Shown here in pieces: positions 41,499-48,494 of a stretch of DNA of 64,000 nt. The stretch comes from Spirochaetaceae bacterium (GTDB taxonomy: Bacteria; Spirochaetota; Spirochaetia; DSM-2461), in assembly GCA_051531975.1 (NCBI GenBank), contig JAOPTT010000005.1, forward strand, positions 192,001 to 256,000, read 5' to 3'. The stretch's first letter is position 1. Every line of letters starts with the position of its first letter. A program made the translations under genes and the position numbers. The notes under the pieces were generated by a model that saw only the letters and a list, made by a program, of their open reading frames with translations, was not told the origin of the DNA and searched no databases.

Positions 41499-44026
41499 TG
41501 AAAGATTATGGATTAAAGAGAAAATGGAAAATACATCTAATACACCATACACACCTTGATATTGGCTATACCCATACACAGGATGCTGTACTAAAGTTAC
41601 AGTTTAAACATCTTGAAAAAGCTATGGACTTAATAGATGAAAATATAAACCGTCCCTTTGAATCTAGATTCAGATGGAATCCAGAAGCCACATGGGCTAT
41701 AGAAGAGTGGTTTGAGCAGGCTTCAGAAATTAATAAAAAGCGTTTTATCTCCATGGTTAAAGGTGGGTATATAGGACTGGATGCTATGTATGGAAGTCTG
41801 CTAACCGGTTTATGTCGTCCAGAAGAATTAATGGAAAATTTTGATAACAAACATAGCTTTGAAAAAATTACAGATGTCAAAATTGATTCTGCAATGATAA
41901 CAGATGTTCCGGGATGGAATTGGGGTCTCGTTACAGCTTTGGCAGAAAATGGTGTTAAATATCTCTCGTCAGGGCCTAACCATATGGATAGAATTGGGCA
42001 TATATTAAAAGATTTTGGAGATAAACCATTTTATTGGCTATCACCTTCCGGTAAAGAGAAAGTACTTCTTTTTGTTCATGGAAAAGGATATGCATGGTTC
42101 CATACCGGTCTAAATAGAACAAAAAATCTAAGAAATAAACTAACTCCTGGTAGAATGGCAAGATATCTTAAAAAACTTGAAAATTCTAACTACCCATATA
42201 ATACAATAATAATTAGGTATAACATTGGTTCGGATAACGGTCCTCCAGATGTTAACCTTAGTAAAATTGTAGAAGAGTGGAATAGCAGTATTACCCAGAT
42301 GAAACTTAATCTATCAACAACATCCAAGGCTATGGGTGATTTTGAGAATGATTATGCAGATGTACTACCCCAATTTCAAGGGGACATTACACCCTATTGG
42401 GAAGATGGTGCATATTCATCCTCTAGAGAGTCCGCTATAAATCGTGAGGCAGGGGAGAGATTAACCCAGGCTAATACTCTATCTGCTATGAATCAAAAAG
42501 CGGAAAGTAATAAAATACTTTTTCATAAAGCTTGGAACAATGTTATTTTATACAGTGAACATACTTGGGGAGCTCATAACTCAATAAGTAGACCTAATCA
42601 TCCATTTGCACTTAGTCAGTGGGCTTGGAAAAAGCAGAGAGCCTTAGATGCCTCTTCTATGTCAAAAGAACTTATAACAAGTAGCAGTAGTGGAACATTT
42701 GTATCACCTAGGTATTATAACGATATACTTGAAAATAAAGCCTCAGACTTAGTTCATGATGAGGTAACAGTTTATAATACCCAAAGTTGGTCTGTTTCTG
42801 GGATTGTTAAATTTAATAGTACCAAAGGTAATATTGTAGATGATTTGGGGAAGCCAGTTTTATCACAGAGATTAAACGATGGGACTATGGCTTTTATGAC
42901 AAAGGATATACCTTCTACAGGGAGTAGAAAGTATTTTATATCCCAGTTTGAAAATGGTTTAAGTGAATCAGACTGTTCTACTGATGGTTTTAATATTTGG
43001 AATGATAAGGTTAAATTGTCTGTAGATAAAAAAACTGGAACAATTAAAAGTATTCTTTTTGGAAACAAAGAGTTAATAAAGCAGAGTGAATTAGAGAAAT
43101 TTAATGATTATGTATTTGTAAAAACAAGGTTTATACGGTTTAGAAAAAAGAACAAAGAAAATAGAGATATTAAACTGTCAATTGTAGAAAAAGGGCCACT
43201 TATATCCACTATAAGAATTAGACAAAGTGGTTATAAAACAAATTCTATAATTACTGATATTACATTGATTGCAGGAAGTGAAAAAATATATATAAATAAC
43301 CTTCTTGATAGACCTGCAGCTAGAAGAAAAGAGGGTTTGCATTTTGAGTTTCCATTTAACCTACCTAATGGAAGAGTTAAATACGATACAACCTGGGGAT
43401 CCGCAGTTGTAGATAAGGATCAGCTAAAGGGAGCCAATAGAAATTTTATTACAGCTACAAGATGGTTTGATATCTCTGATTCAGAAACAGGTGTATCATG
43501 TGCTCTATTAGATGCACCCATGTTTAAATCAGGTTCGTTAATTAATGATCCTAGAAGATTTGGTAATCCTGTACGTAGCGGTTGGATAGAAGAGACTAAA
43601 TACAACGGAACTATTTACTCCTATGTTATGAATAACTACTGGCAGACTAATTATAAAGCTGATCAGGAGGGTAAAACTCTTTTTAGATATGTCTTTAGAC
43701 CCCATGGGAAATATAGTGAGGAAGAGACTTATAGATTTGCTATGGAAGAAGCCCAGCCTCTAATTGTTACTTCTAAGGGAATCAATACTAGGAGTAGCCT
43801 TATAACTTTAAGTGATAATAGGATTATAACAACTTCTATTAAACCAGAAGGGGACAACCTTGTTATTCGTCTGTTTAATATTTCAGAAGAGGAAGTTGAA
43901 ACAAATATTACTTCAAAAATTGATGGGATTTTAGCTGTATTAAGTCCTTTAAAGGATAATAATCTTAAAAATGGGAAGGTTAGTCTTTCCCCTAAAGAGA
44001 CAATATTGATAATATTAAAAAAATAA
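41498..44026 (+). CDS. GH38-like glycoside hydrolase
   Basis: HHTHLDIGYT, DVPG, PYWEDG, YSEHTWG, MNNYWQTNY. Confidence 0.8.
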   Translation: MKDYGLKRKWKIHLIHHTHLDIGYTHTQDAVLKLQFKHLEKAMDLIDENINRPFESRFRWNPEATWAIEEWFEQASEINKKRFISMVKGGYIGLDAMYGSLLTGLCRPEELMENFDNKHSFEKITDVKIDSAMITDVPGWNWGLVTALAENGVKYLSSGPNHMDRIGHILKDFGDKPFYWLSPSGKEKVLLFVHGKGYAWFHTGLNRTKNLRNKLTPGRMARYLKKLENSNYPYNTIIIRYNIGSDNGPPDVNLSKIVEEWNSSITQMKLNLSTTSKAMGDFENDYADVLPQFQGDITPYWEDGAYSSSRESAINREAGERLTQANTLSAMNQKAESNKILFHKAWNNVILYSEHTWGAHNSISRPNHPFALSQWAWKKQRALDASSMSKELITSSSSGTFVSPRYYNDILENKASDLVHDEVTVYNTQSWSVSGIVKFNSTKGNIVDDLGKPVLSQRLNDGTMAFMTKDIPSTGSRKYFISQFENGLSESDCSTDGFNIWNDKVKLSVDKKTGTIKSILFGNKELIKQSELEKFNDYVFVKTRFIRFRKKNKENRDIKLSIVEKGPLISTIRIRQSGYKTNSIITDITLIAGSEKIYINNLLDRPAARRKEGLHFEFPFNLPNGRVKYDTTWGSAVVDKDQLKGANRNFITATRWFDISDSETGVSCALLDAPMFKSGSLINDPRRFGNPVRSGWIEETKYNGTIYSYVMNNYWQTNYKADQEGKTLFRYVFRPHGKYSEEETYRFAMEEAQPLIVTSKGINTRSSLITLSDNRIITTSIKPEGDNLVIRLFNISEEEVETNITSKIDGILAVLSPLKDNNLKNGKVSLSPKETILIILKK

Positions 44027-44058
44027 AAAACATTTCAAAGTAGTATTCTTTAATATAA

Positions 44059-44100
44059 ATGGATCAAATACAGCTAAGGTTAAAGCTGTAATTGATCCAT
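44059..44100. terminator. Hairpin after the GH38-like gene
   Basis: ATGGATCAAATACAGCT / AGCTGTAATTGATCCAT arms, 16/17 paired. Confidence 0.6.
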
Positions 44101-44216
44101 ATCATACATCATTTCCTGTGTTACCTGTAATGTAACTAGGGGAGGAATAATTCACAAAATGTTACTGCTTGTTTATGTTATTTAGGATATGAGAATTACA
44201 ACGTTTAATAATTCAA

Positions 44217-44381
44217 TTATTTAACATTGAATACTAAATCATCTATAGGAAATGTCTCCTCACTAACATCTTTAGTAATGTTATCGGTAATCCATAATTT
44301 ATAATGAAACATACCCTCATATTCCCATTTAGTAATTTCAACTTCTTCTTTTCTAGATTTTATATAGACTAAACTTTTCAT
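44217..44381 (-). CDS. 54-aa small ORF or gene remnant
   Basis: AAAGGGA-N6-ATG; MKSLVYIKSRKEEVEITKWEYEGMFHYKLWITDNITKDVSEETFPIDDLVFNVK. Confidence 0.35.
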   Translation of the reverse strand: MKSLVYIKSRKEEVEITKWEYEGMFHYKLWITDNITKDVSEETFPIDDLVFNVK

Positions 44382-44511
44382 TTAAAAGTCCCTTTAATAA
44401 TTAGTATTCAAATTATTTTATTATAAACAAAATATTATTACGGTAACTTATGTTACAAAGCTACATATAATTCCTTTTTTTACCTTTTTAATATAAATAT
44501 AGAATATCAAT

Positions 44512-44549
44512 TAGTACTGCTTGACGTTAATAATGCCAAGCAGTACTAT
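44512..44549 (+). promoter_or_regulatory. higBA promoter inside an operator palindrome
   Basis: TTGACG-N17-TACTAT within a TAGTACTGCTTGACGTT / AATGCCAAGCAGTACTA inverted repeat (15/17). Confidence 0.8.
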
Positions 44550-44555
44550 TAAGTT

Positions 44556-44837
44556 ATGATATTTTTTTTCAAAAATAAAGATTCAGAAAAAATATGGAAC
44601 CAAATATATGTAAAGAAAATTCCTAAGGATGTTCAAAGAATAGGTCTTCGAAAATTATTTATCCTACACAGAGCTAAAAATATAAATGATTTAAAAGTTC
44701 CACCGGGTAATAAGTTAGAAAAGTTATCGGGAGACAGAAAGGATCAGTACAGCATCAGGATAAATGATCAATGGAGAATTTGTTTCATCTGGAATGAAGG
44801 AATAATAAATAATGTTGAAATTGTTGATTATCACTAA
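44556..44837 (+). CDS. higB: HigB (RelE/ParE superfamily) toxin
   Basis: [33 protein letters not shown]...IVDYH. Confidence 0.93.
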
Positions 44838-44848
44838 GGGGAGATTAA

Positions 44849-45142
44849 ATGGAACTAATACCTAATATAACACCAGGAGAAATACTTTTAGAAGAATTTC
44901 TAAAACCAATGAAAATAAGTGCATATAGGTTATCTAAAGATACAATGATGCCAGCAACAAGAATTTCAGAAATTATTAAAGGTCGTAGAAAAGTTACAGC
45001 AGATACGGCCTTAAGGCTTGGTGCTTATTTTGGAAATAGTCCAGATTTTTGGTTAGGAATCCAAGATGAATTCGATCTAAGAAAAGAAAAAATAAAAATA
45101 GAAATGGAATTAAAAAAAATACCACATGCTGTTGCTACATAG
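44849..45142 (+). CDS. higA: HigA antitoxin
   Basis: PGEILLEEFL, RISEIIKGRRKVTADTALRL, FWLGIQ. Confidence 0.93.
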   Translation: MELIPNITPGEILLEEFLKPMKISAYRLSKDTMMPATRISEIIKGRRKVTADTALRLGAYFGNSPDFWLGIQDEFDLRKEKIKIEMELKKIPHAVAT

Positions 45143-45163
45143 ATATGAAAATCTTGTCCCGAT

Positions 45164-45274
45164 GTGTAACAAACTGTTGGAAAAGAAAAATTATCGATCA
45201 CAGTCTATGCAAATAAAATGCAAAGACTGCGCCAACCCTATGGGACAAATTTTCTTCTTAACAGGACGTTATTC
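45164..45274 (+). mobile_element. Integron attC-like recombination site (111 bp)
   Basis: R'' GTGTAAC, 5 nt, L'' GTTGGAAAAGAAAAATT, inner stem CAGTCTATGCA/TGCAAAGACTG, L' AATTTTCTTCTTAAC, 5 nt, R' GTTATTC. Confidence 0.75.
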
Positions 45275-45339
45275 CGATTGAAAAATAATCAATTTAGGAC
45301 TATACTCCAGATAATGAGCTTTATTCTGGGAGTATAGTC

Positions 45340-46548
45340 ATGATTGATAATATTATTTCAACATATAAAAGGTTAATAAATTACACAAATTTTAACCACC
45401 ACAGATATATTTATGATAAATTTAACCTTAATAATAGGCTAACAGGTTTAATTGGACCCCGAGGAACTGGAAAAACAACATTATTATTACAATACATAAA
45501 AGAAAAATTATGTGTTGATGAGTGCATATATACATCATTAGATAACCTATACTTTACTCAAAACAATCTTATTGAATTTGTTAATGAACTTTATGAATTT
45601 CATGGAATTAGATACTTTTTCTTTGATGAAACACACAAATATCCTAACTGGAATCAAGAATTAAAAAATCTATATGACTCATATCCAGATATTAAAATTG
45701 TATTTTCAGGAAGTTCTAGTTTAGACCTTATAAAAGGTTCATATGACCTATCAAGACGTGGTGTTATATACAAAATAGGAGGAATGTCATTTAGAGAATA
45801 TTTACTATTTAATGATATAACTAATATTCCTCCAATAACTTTAAATGAGTTAATAGAAAATAAAAATCACTATGAAACTGAAATAGGCTCTATAAAAATG
45901 ATAATGGGACATTTTAGAAATTATTTAGGTAAAGGATATTATCCTTTTCTTTTAGAAGACTCAGAAAGCTATAATCATAAAATTCAAAGAATCATAGAAA
46001 AAACAATATATGAAGATATTGCTAATCACTACAAACTCAAAACAGAAAACTTAATTAATTTTAAAAGAATAATTTCATATATGGCAACTATACCTCCTGG
46101 AGAACTAAATATAAATAATATATCCAAGAATATTGGATTAGATAATAAAACTATTCAAAACTATTTAGAGATCTTACAAGAGACAGGATTGATAGAATTA
46201 ATTATAAAGAATAGATCAGGAAGCCAAATATTAAAGAAAACAGAGAAAATATTTTTAGATAATCCAGACTTATATAAATCAACAAGTAAAGAAATAGGGT
46301 TTGAAACACAAGTAGGCACTTTAAGAGAAATATTTTTTATTAAAATGATGCTAAATTCAGATAATAAAATTCATTATAGTGAGATTGGAGACTACACAGT
46401 AAATAATATTAACTATGAAATTGGTGGAAAGAATAAAGATTTAAAACAAATTAAGAATCATTTAGATAACTCATTCCTTGTAAAAGATGAAATATTAACT
46501 GGGAACAAATATGAAATACCACTATATTTATTGGGATTTTTATATTAG
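45340..46548 (+). CDS. AAA+ ATPase (AAA_14/DUF4143 type)
   Basis: Walker A GPRGTGKT, Walker B FFDE, FSGSS, MSFREYL, GYYPF, EIGGKNK, PLYLLGFLY; very AT-rich. Confidence 0.88.
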   Translation: MIDNIISTYKRLINYTNFNHHRYIYDKFNLNNRLTGLIGPRGTGKTTLLLQYIKEKLCVDECIYTSLDNLYFTQNNLIEFVNELYEFHGIRYFFFDETHKYPNWNQELKNLYDSYPDIKIVFSGSSSLDLIKGSYDLSRRGVIYKIGGMSFREYLLFNDITNIPPITLNELIENKNHYETEIGSIKMIMGHFRNYLGKGYYPFLLEDSESYNHKIQRIIEKTIYEDIANHYKLKTENLINFKRIISYMATIPPGELNINNISKNIGLDNKTIQNYLEILQETGLIELIIKNRSGSQILKKTEKIFLDNPDLYKSTSKEIGFETQVGTLREIFFIKMMLNSDNKIHYSEIGDYTVNNINYEIGGKNKDLKQIKNHLDNSFLVKDEILTGNKYEIPLYLLGFLY

Positions 46549-46614
46549 TAATTACTACTAAAGTATAATGGATTTCAAATACAGTTAGAGCTATTATGTA
46601 TAAGAGGAATAAAT

Positions 46615-46716
46615 ATGAAATTTGTAGAATTACTTAATAAGACCAATTGGAATGACATAGAAGAATGTTTACTTAATAAATTATTGTTCCTCTTTTCTTA
46701 TTATACAGTGTTCTAA
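46615..46716 (+). pseudogene. Truncated gene start (possible next cassette) running into the convergent GH2 3' end
   Basis: AGAGGA-N6-ATG; MKFVELLNKTNWNDIEECLL, then overlap with the antisense gene. Confidence 0.4.
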
Positions 46717-48494
46717 ACTCTTTATAAATTAACCTGTTTAACTCAGCAACTACATCTTCATCAATTTTAAGAACTTTTCTATCGTAGGTGTAAAAACCAT
46801 TTGATTCAATTTCGACATCAGAAAATTGGGTATAAACAGCTCCACCTAAACCATGCTTTAATAGTGGGATCAGCTGATCTTCTATTAGACTTCTATAGGC
46901 TGTTTCTAACTCTTCTTTACTCTTAAAGGATATATAAGAAAACTTCTTTTTCTCATCCCACATATTACCAATAGATTTAAGATTATACCCACCATATTCT
47001 GATATTAAGTAGACTCTCTGATCTCTCTTTTTTGGTTTTTGTAATTTCTTCGAATACTTATGTACAGAGTTAAAATCCCCAACACCTTGATCAAACCAAC
47101 CAGAAGCGTGGTCAACTATCCTGGTAGGATCATAATCTTCTACAATTGTATTAATTCTTTTAGCATCATACTGTCCCCAAGCTTCATTAAATGGGCACCA
47201 GACCAATATCGATGGATAGTTATGCAGGTGATCCATTAACTCTATTAACTCTCTTTCAAAATCCTCATTGGACTCGATACTATTTCGGCCAGCACTTTTT
47301 TTATATGGTTTGGAGGTATCCTTTATGTGGTAACCAAATAGGTAGTGTAATACATCCCCAACTGGTTCAACTCTGTTAGTTCCTCCAGACATCATATCCT
47401 GTATTACAATCAGTCCAATCCTGTCAGCATGGTAATACCATCGTCTAGGTTCTACCTTTATATGTTTACGGGTCATATTAAACCCTAGTGATTTTGTCTT
47501 ATTTAGATCGAAGAGTATAGCTTCCTCTGAAGGGGGAGTCATACCACTCTCAGGCCAATATCCCTGATCTAATGGTCCGTGTAAAAAGATAGGTATGTCA
47601 TTTAGATATATTGCCTTTGATGTTGTTATACCAGAACCAAGTTCAATTTTTCTCATTGCAAAATAGCTTTCAATACGATCCAGAACGTTATCATCTTCTA
47701 ATAATTCTAGGACTAAATTATATAAAAATGGTGAGTCAGGAGACCATAGTATCTGATTTGGAATTGGAATAAATTTTGTATTATTACATGGTACAATAGC
47801 TGAAGTTACTATTCTATTTTCATCAAAAACAGATACTCTAACAACTCCAGGAGTTTTTGTTTTCACATTTATTTTAAGTTGTGACTCATCAACATTGGGG
47901 GGTAAGTTTAATAGAATGAATATAATTATCTTTTGCTACAGGTTCCAACCAGACTGATTGCCATATTCCACTGGTTGCAGTATAAAAACAACCCTTTGGT
48001 TTTAGTGACTGTTTACCCCTCTGTTGCCAATGGGTATCTGTTGGGTCCCAAACACAGAGCTGGATTTCATTTTTATCAGTATTTAGGTATTTTGTTATAT
48101 CAAAACTAAAAGGGATATAACCACCCTGGTGTATTCCAACAGAGACATCATTAACATAACATTCACAATACCAGTCAACAGCTTCAAAGTTCAGTAAAAT
48201 GCTCTTACCTTGCCAATCTTCAGGAATGTTAAATATTTTCCTGTACCAGAGATTCTCATTGGGAAGAAGGGCTTTTTTTACACCTGAACTAGCACTTTCT
48301 ATTGCAAATGGAACAAGAATCTCTCCCGTATATAGATCTGGTATATATTGTTGATGCCCGGTTATAACATAGTCCCAAGGGCCATTTAAACTTTTCCATT
48401 CTGACCTAACTAGTTGTGGTCTTGGATATTCATTTAATGGGTCATTTAAATCTATGTTTTCTCCCCAAACAGTGCTTATATCTATATTTTTCAA
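46673..48494 (-). pseudogene. GH2 glycosidase split by a +1 frameshift
   Basis: ORFs 47889-48494 (LNFEAVDW, SGIWQSVWLE) and 46673-47866 (LDQGYWP, RKHIK, PFNEAW) join as ...KLTPNVDE... if one C of the C6 run at 47897-47902 is removed. Confidence 0.88.

Follow-up and report, generated by a model that had tools for sequence, protein, structure and literature searches.

The systems closest to the locus described here are those in which integron gene cassettes lie away from an integrase. SALINs, of which about 3400 have been reported (10.1101/2022.09.11.507474), have one attC site with a coding sequence upstream, and their integrase is found elsewhere in the genome rather than nearby. The same preprint describes recombination of a folded attC with attG sites, which gives a left junction of the form GWT/TGWT, and proposes that the attC hairpin is afterwards lost by slippage, as expected in domestication. 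CALINs, in the passages of PMC4889954 that deal with them, are integrase-less cassettes, typically of small size and possibly mobilisable in trans, with at least two attC sites required; integrons in the spirochaete phylum are also already reported in those passages.

The known HigBA systems (RelE superfamily) encode the toxin first, match PF05015 and TIGR02607, and have a palindrome at the promoter. Vibrio cholerae carries higBA cassettes. The part of PMC11023631 that treats the V. cholerae sedentary integron describes 19 toxin-antitoxin (TA) cassettes with their own promoters, each promoter lying inside its cassette and loss of the cassette being predicted to kill.

Here we analyse a 64-kb stretch of contig C5 of a draft spirochaete genome (the window), in which a higBA pair, an attC site and an ATPase gene follow one another within a cluster of sugar-use genes. 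Like a SALIN, the locus has one attC, a coding sequence upstream, an integrase elsewhere in the genome and a GWT/TGWT left junction; unlike the published cases, it holds two cassettes, the second without an attC, their insertion is something we infer, and the host is a spirochaete with an attC family of its own, whereas the attG rules come from measurements on IntI1-3 in E. coli. It shares with CALINs the lack of an adjoining integrase, but has one detectable attC. It shares with the sedentary-integron TA cassettes an internal promoter and predicted killing on loss; higBA here lies outside any array, however, and would therefore guard at most itself and the neighbouring DNA. Toxin-first order, both domain matches above cut-off and the promoter palindrome are as in known HigBA, although the higB transcript is predicted to be leaderless and the toxin activity itself is a prediction. 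On balance we favour the view that the locus consists of two tandem cassettes, higBA with its attC and the ATPase without one, which were likely inserted by IntI at an attG-type GTT and likely fixed by loss of the downstream attC.

The attC site and its family

The site that follows higA is made up of these parts:

45164-45274, minus strand (bottom strand, the folding strand): attC site, recognised by covariance model, nhmmer and family covariation
45164-45170: R'' core, GTGTAAC
45268-45274: R' core, GTTATTC
45268/45269: crossover, between these two positions
45259: the single L-box mismatch

A core ending in AAC and a GTT thus bound an imperfect palindrome of 111 bp, where 55-140 nt is the range required of an attC. 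The R'' consensus is RYYYAAC, from which GTGTAAC deviates at position 3. Folding energy is lower for the bottom strand (-16.1 kcal/mol, z -3.84, with none of 200 shuffles as good) than for the top strand (-14.3 kcal/mol, z -2.93, with 2 of 200 as good), and the bottom-strand fold has paired R and L boxes, an unpaired central spacer and extrahelical bases. A covariance model built from 13 other sites of the host genome and of a genome of the same genus, G001 (the window copy excluded; this is not the IntegronFinder model), matches 45164-45274 on the minus strand at 99.6 bits (E 7e-29), the next-best match in the 64-kb window reaching 20 bits; an nhmmer profile, likewise without the window copy, also detects the site (E 1.2e-19). 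An earlier interpretation made from the letters of this DNA alone (the sequence-only reading) had placed a palindrome of attC architecture 21 bp after higA, with bulged bases in its left arm, and had suggested folding the bottom strand and searching with an attC covariance model: its coordinates were right, and the bulges correspond to two unpaired bases in the R''-side arm, at about 45180 and 45186.

Across 14 aligned sites of the family, 92.4% of 525 cells are paired, with the column of the L-box mismatch (16-96) unpaired in five of the 14. Changes on both sides occur in 21 of 38 pairs. None of 500 shuffles reached these values, and in slid controls 39-50% of cells paired; the family structure is favoured in this last comparison, because it was drawn from folds of the same sites. 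G-T pairs fall preferentially on the bottom strand, and the nearest copy of the site found by BLAST, on contig C3, is 90.6% identical over 106 nt. The stretch 45164-45274 is an attC of the host genome's own family. That such a palindrome might instead be a terminator, a REP-like repeat or a small RNA is suggested by one point, its place as a hairpin 3' of a gene, and is extremely improbable: related repeats punctuate the cassette array that adjoins intI, the strand preference of the G-T pairs speaks for attC, no terminator-like site was found, and an Rfam search gave no match near the gathering score (three weak matches, none on the site).

The integrase and the dispersed attC sites

A single integron integrase in the genome exceeds the TIGR02249 cut-off of 265 bits. 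It lies on contig C8 (387.4 bits), is intact, with no stops, and stands beside a gene array punctuated by relatives of the window's attC, in which the cassette start complements the cassette's own R'' in all five cases checked (7/7 in four, 6/7 in one). With this protein as query, contig C5 holds no IntI or IntI fragment at E<=1. The absence of an integrase asserted by the sequence-only reading therefore holds for the window and for C5 but not for the genome as a whole, and its idea of an IntI acting in trans now has a candidate in the C8 gene. It had also proposed a search for related repeats, and the covariance model finds 19 family matches in the genome, five in the C8 array and 14 on contigs C3, C5, C10, C22 and C25, so the repeat is not unique; since 14 of the 19 lie outside the C8 array, dispersal must be frequent here. 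The genome also contains, in other places, eroded copies of attC and partial arrays. By GC skew the orientation of attC sites relative to replication is inconsistent, those on C8 and C10 being opposite in sign to the others, and in a draft genome this allows no interpretation.

The locus has one attC above 20 bits in 64 kb and no IntI match on its contig, and because its attC is single it is a SALIN (definition: bioRxiv 10.1101/2022.09.11.507474) and not a CALIN, which needs two or more; the label "CALIN-like" given to it earlier is thus replaced. Nor is it a complete integron, as intI is on C8 and the left flank has no attI.

Short look-alikes of the C8 attI end occur away from intI, at C3:205979(-), C3:111270(-) and C25:68369(-) and further at C6:622449, C6:413339, C6:417671, C22:32841, C10:277531 and C13:18906. 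The one at C3:205979 is identical to the C8 attI end at 23 of 24 nt; there and at C25:68369 the GTT matches the R'' of the next attC at 7/7, with a 9-nt run, and the two look like attI-type heads of dispersed cassettes. Cassettes bounded by attI are described in PMC12901181. At 197602-198248 (-), contig C3 also holds another stranded pair of TA type (BrnT/BrnA-like by eye), with a truncated attC after it; a near-identical copy of the pair, with a full attC, is found in an array of G001 (L159:11937-12586). Another array of that genome (L158, G001 C1:1405000-1414000) is rich in TA-like pairs, as judged by eye, with a complete higBA cassette among them, and G001 has tyrosine-recombinase/transposase pairs at attC ends.

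The higBA cassette

The first cassette and its parts are as follows:

44452-44458, plus strand: core of the left junction, GTTACAA, with the putative crossover between 44452 and 44453
44453-45268, plus strand: cassette 1, comprising promoter, higB, higA and attC up to the crossover G; 5' end putative, 3' end fixed by the homology start of cassette 2
44512-44548, without strand: inverted repeat with perfect 12-bp arms over the promoter, found by self-match
44521-44549, plus strand: sigma70-like promoter TTGACG-17-TACTAT, consensus match only
44556-44837, plus strand: higB, RelE-like toxin of 93 aa (PF05015, E 2.1e-19, 70.2 bits, cut-off 27)
44849-45142, plus strand: higA, antitoxin of 97 aa (TIGR02607, 96.2 bits, cut-off 47.7)
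45143-45163, plus strand: spacer of 21 nt between higA and attC, in part the complement of one attC arm (about 45240-45254)

A RelE-like toxin gene followed by a helix-turn-helix (HTH) antitoxin gene is the layout of a type II HigBA system. The solved chain nearest to HigB is PDB 6f8s_B ('Putative Killer protein', E 2.9e-23, the C-terminal DYH being aligned), which we take to be GraT of P. putida; a further structural match is 4mct_B, presumably a HigB of the P. vulgaris type. The internal promoter that had been proposed for this pair is present as a consensus match, in a scan that returned 19 sites against 20.5 expected by chance. It lies within the perfect 12-bp inverted repeat, which for a member of this family makes autorepression by HigA the expectation; palindromes of this kind are also found upstream of homologues, and the repeat is likely the HigA operator. 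The ATG of higB stands 6 nt past the -10 box (44544-44558), leaving no room for a ribosome-binding site (RBS), and a spacing of 5-6 nt was seen by eye in the homologue loci L013, L017, L028, L030 and L035, which suggests that the higB mRNA is leaderless and that this is conserved among homologues.

The 5' end of the cassette is less sharply marked. GTTACAA begins 104 nt before the higB ATG and is a 6/7 complement of R'' (8/10 when extended), weaker than the 7/7 of four of the five C8 cassettes, and was counted as a cassette end. The match at 44452 that the sequence-only reading had pointed out is therefore there, but is weak alone: at least 6/7 is expected by chance in 0.07-0.09 of random 120-nt windows, and the 4 kb upstream hold five such matches, two of them inside higB and higA. 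For at least 8/10 the chance per 120 nt is 0.014, and 0.002 when a preceding TAT is required (criteria chosen post hoc), the corresponding values over the whole 494-nt spacer being 0.057 and 0.010.

Relatives give a clearer picture. Among 32 higBA loci from the class, which are the best DNA matches and not a random sample, a TAAC core lies 11-22 nt after higA in 13, and four (L030, L135, L136 and L137) are complete cassettes that also have a 7/7 GTT 66-76 nt before higB; L030 is in G001, of the same genus as the host. These loci support the earlier proposal of a cassette at about 44453-45268, and judged on its sequence features the cassette most likely spans 44453-45268. A scan of metagenomes with HigB as query gave 80 loci, 51-64% identical to it. 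Against the explanation we favour, the closest higBA (84% and 87% amino-acid identity, in G002, a genome 81% complete) shows no attC, and the upstream core reaches 6/7, with matches of that kind inside both genes. Alignment of the DNA upstream of the G002 pair defined no 5' boundary.

The G002 pair is what would be expected if higBA were a resident chromosomal TA pair, behind which an attC and the ATPase cassette had landed, with GTTACAA present by chance; the 19 of 32 homologue loci in which higA is not followed by a TAAC core at 11-22 nt, and the 7-9% chance of a 6/7 match in 120 nt, point the same way. The 21-nt gap between higA and R'' contains no GTT, however, so the cassette to which the attC belongs must begin upstream of the higA stop; the spacing from stop to R'' is like that of the cassette homologues, and the 8/10 match with its preceding TAT lowers the chance to 0.002-0.014. 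A resident pair is accordingly very improbable.

The ATPase cassette

Directly 3' of the attC lies a second cassette, which the sequence-only reading had missed:

45269-46548, plus strand: cassette 2, leader and ATPase gene; 5' end exact, 3' attC lost
45278-45306, plus strand: promoter-like site TTGAAA-17-TATACT, 10/12 of the consensus, with similar sequence in relatives
45340-46548, plus strand: ATPase gene (AAA_14 and DUF4143), 402 aa (PF13173, E 8.1e-29; PF13635, E 4e-7)
46549-46672, plus strand: region after the ATPase gene; a GTT core (46584) is followed by an RBS and, from 46615, by a short ORF

The ATPase matches PADLOC model PDLC04787 (E 5.4e-29), which carries the label of candidate defence family PDC-S01, a predicted function. 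DNA homology to G001 sets in exactly at the G of GTT (45268) and continues through the end of the gene; it starts at 45267 in G012 and at 45258 in G007. Among the 21 most similar full-length loci of 49 homologue loci, seven (in six genomes) are complete cassettes with a TAAC core just past the stop and a 9/9 complementary GTT, and the distance from GTT to start codon is 72-75 nt in these and 72 nt in the window. The crossover between the G and the TT is common to these cassette homologues, and because the start and the spacing are shared, the R' of the window's attC is formed by the first bases of the ATPase cassette. The earlier view of a cassette set in sugar-island DNA was thus right about the surroundings, where GH38, GH2, ROK, sulfatase and rhamnosidase families make "sugar island" a fair label, but the R' core is part of a second cassette and not of that island.

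Where the attC of this second cassette would be expected, in 46549-46672, there is no family attC and no model match at E<=5. Without an attC of its own it is therefore a cassette remnant and not a complete cassette; the same ATPase cassette stands in G001 with no attC on either side. The ORF at 46615-46716 (33 aa) runs into the end of the GH2 gene, and it and the GTT at 46584 are possibly a chromosomal half-site of the target or the start of a truncated third cassette. In sequencing run X2, low-depth pieces near-identical to the ATPase gene reach as far as 46604, a weak hint that DNA past the stop travels with the gene and a point against the explanation we favour; that close cover by X2 is not listed for other parts carries no weight. 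An ATPase homologue 80% identical to that of the window (L166) is in a record titled uncultured Psychromonas sp., which suggests cross-phylum transfer or mis-binning.

Flanking DNA and origin of the locus

We considered the left junction as an attI and rejected it, as it has no GTGAT motif of the kind found in the C8 attI and its look-alikes; with the genome's attI the left flank has only TAT-GTT in common. The junction fits the GWT/TGWT consensus and, on this sequence match, is attG-like. Comparison of 43000-47500 with 40 relatives found no genome with both flanks in register and no empty-site allele, which counts against the explanation we favour. Orthologues of the GH38 gene occur in four of 37 family genomes, the two examined being about 50% identical and too distant; in two more distant relatives the upstream GH38 gene is followed directly by a transporter-like gene, which counts for that explanation. 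The right-hand chromosomal junction has no placeable position, which counts against it. Three sequencing runs gave no joint matching excision of the cassette, in contigs that cannot show absence, and X1 is possibly the source of the assembly and hence not independent; the one joint listed, 44711-44810 (X2, with a 24-nt side), falls inside higB and is unsupported. A contig from an RNA library of the same sample is identical to 44631-44840, which is no demonstration of transcription.

Debris lies on both sides of the cassettes and also counts against that explanation. To the left, the gene remnant at 44019-44150 is similar to the C-terminal end of an ORF of contig C6 (626486-626875, 129 aa), and the ORF at 44217-44381 (-), of 54 aa, has an RBS-like site and runs divergently from higB; to the right is the ORF at 46615-46716. 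The two short ORFs have no homologue in 37 family genomes, and neither they nor the remnant have a Pfam match, atlas scores being at most 0.84. Contig C6 holds another such remnant at about 624625-624718. The GH2 gene, at 46673-48494 (-), appears split between two ORFs, an N-terminal domain (47889-48494) and the catalytic part (46673-47866), and is possibly a frameshifted gene. No transposase was found among the ORFs scanned near the site, which are part of the window's ORFs.

The debris also fits an origin that we think unlikely, in which both cassettes, and perhaps the start of a third at 46584, were once part of a longer array. Rearrangement or some other mobile element would have brought this fragment here, or the array would have eroded where it stood once intI was lost; in neither case would IntI have inserted the cassettes at this spot. 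The eroded attC copies and partial arrays elsewhere in the genome favour this origin, as do, weakly and at low depth, the X2 pieces that match to 46604, and the passages of PMC4889954 on CALIN origins name intI loss and rearrangement. Against it, the contig has no intI fragment, the 64-kb window has no second attC above 20 bits, the DNA to the left of 44452 has the form neither of an attI nor of the end of an attC, and no transposase was recognised among the scanned ORFs near the site.

Insertion at an attG-type site, the reading we prefer, would have proceeded as follows. The C8 IntI would have recombined the folded bottom strand of an attC with a double-stranded chromosomal GTT, a reaction of the kind described for attG sites (10.1101/2022.09.11.507474). 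The cassettes may have arrived together on a single circle, or in two steps at the same left junction, with higBA following the ATPase; both routes give the same final sequence. The attC hairpin of the second cassette would have been deleted later. Because both cassettes carry promoter-like sites, they would need no Pc for their expression. If higBA were excised, stable HigB would persist with no new HigA, and selection would for that reason favour keeping the cassette.

Folding of the attC site in its context

Computed for the isolated site, the recombinogenic fold has a probability of 0.72, but 0.02-0.11 with flanks (0.02 with 25-nt flanks), while seven other attC sites of the genome that fold well alone keep 0.46-0.89 with theirs. 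In the calculation the 21-nt spacer takes up the arm at about 45240-45254 by pairing with it, which lowers the probability from 0.72 to 0.014, about 50-fold; one of 300 shuffled spacers does as much. These values raise the idea that the spacer, antisense to the arm of its own attC, would lock the cassette in a non-recombinogenic hairpin. In six of six homologous higBA cassettes the effect is absent, and two of 29 attC sites overall reach so low a level, about the chance expectation; coincidence is for these reasons the default, and the lock seems to us improbable. As a general device of TA cassettes it was rejected as unsupported, given those six cassettes. If it were true here, a mobile addiction cassette would have been domesticated without deletion of its attC, and higBA would be a fixed guard before a candidate anti-phage ATPase within a sugar-use island. 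Our search of the open-access full-text literature for non-recombinogenic misfolding of attC in cassettes gave no match.

Implications

SALINs have been published, as have TA cassettes that carry promoters of their own, and the locus adds one ordinary case to a dispersal route already described. For SALINs that carry TA pairs, the open-access full texts matched only work on peptide deformylase, which does not show them to be undescribed. What the locus offers is a well-resolved natural case, outside the Proteobacteria, of cassettes beyond the integron platform. Because the genome holds a candidate integrase, an attC family and 14 dispersed matches, a single organism could serve to test both attG insertion and hairpin loss. 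A search for attC misses the ATPase cassette both here and in G001, so that counts of attC sites undercount cassettes.
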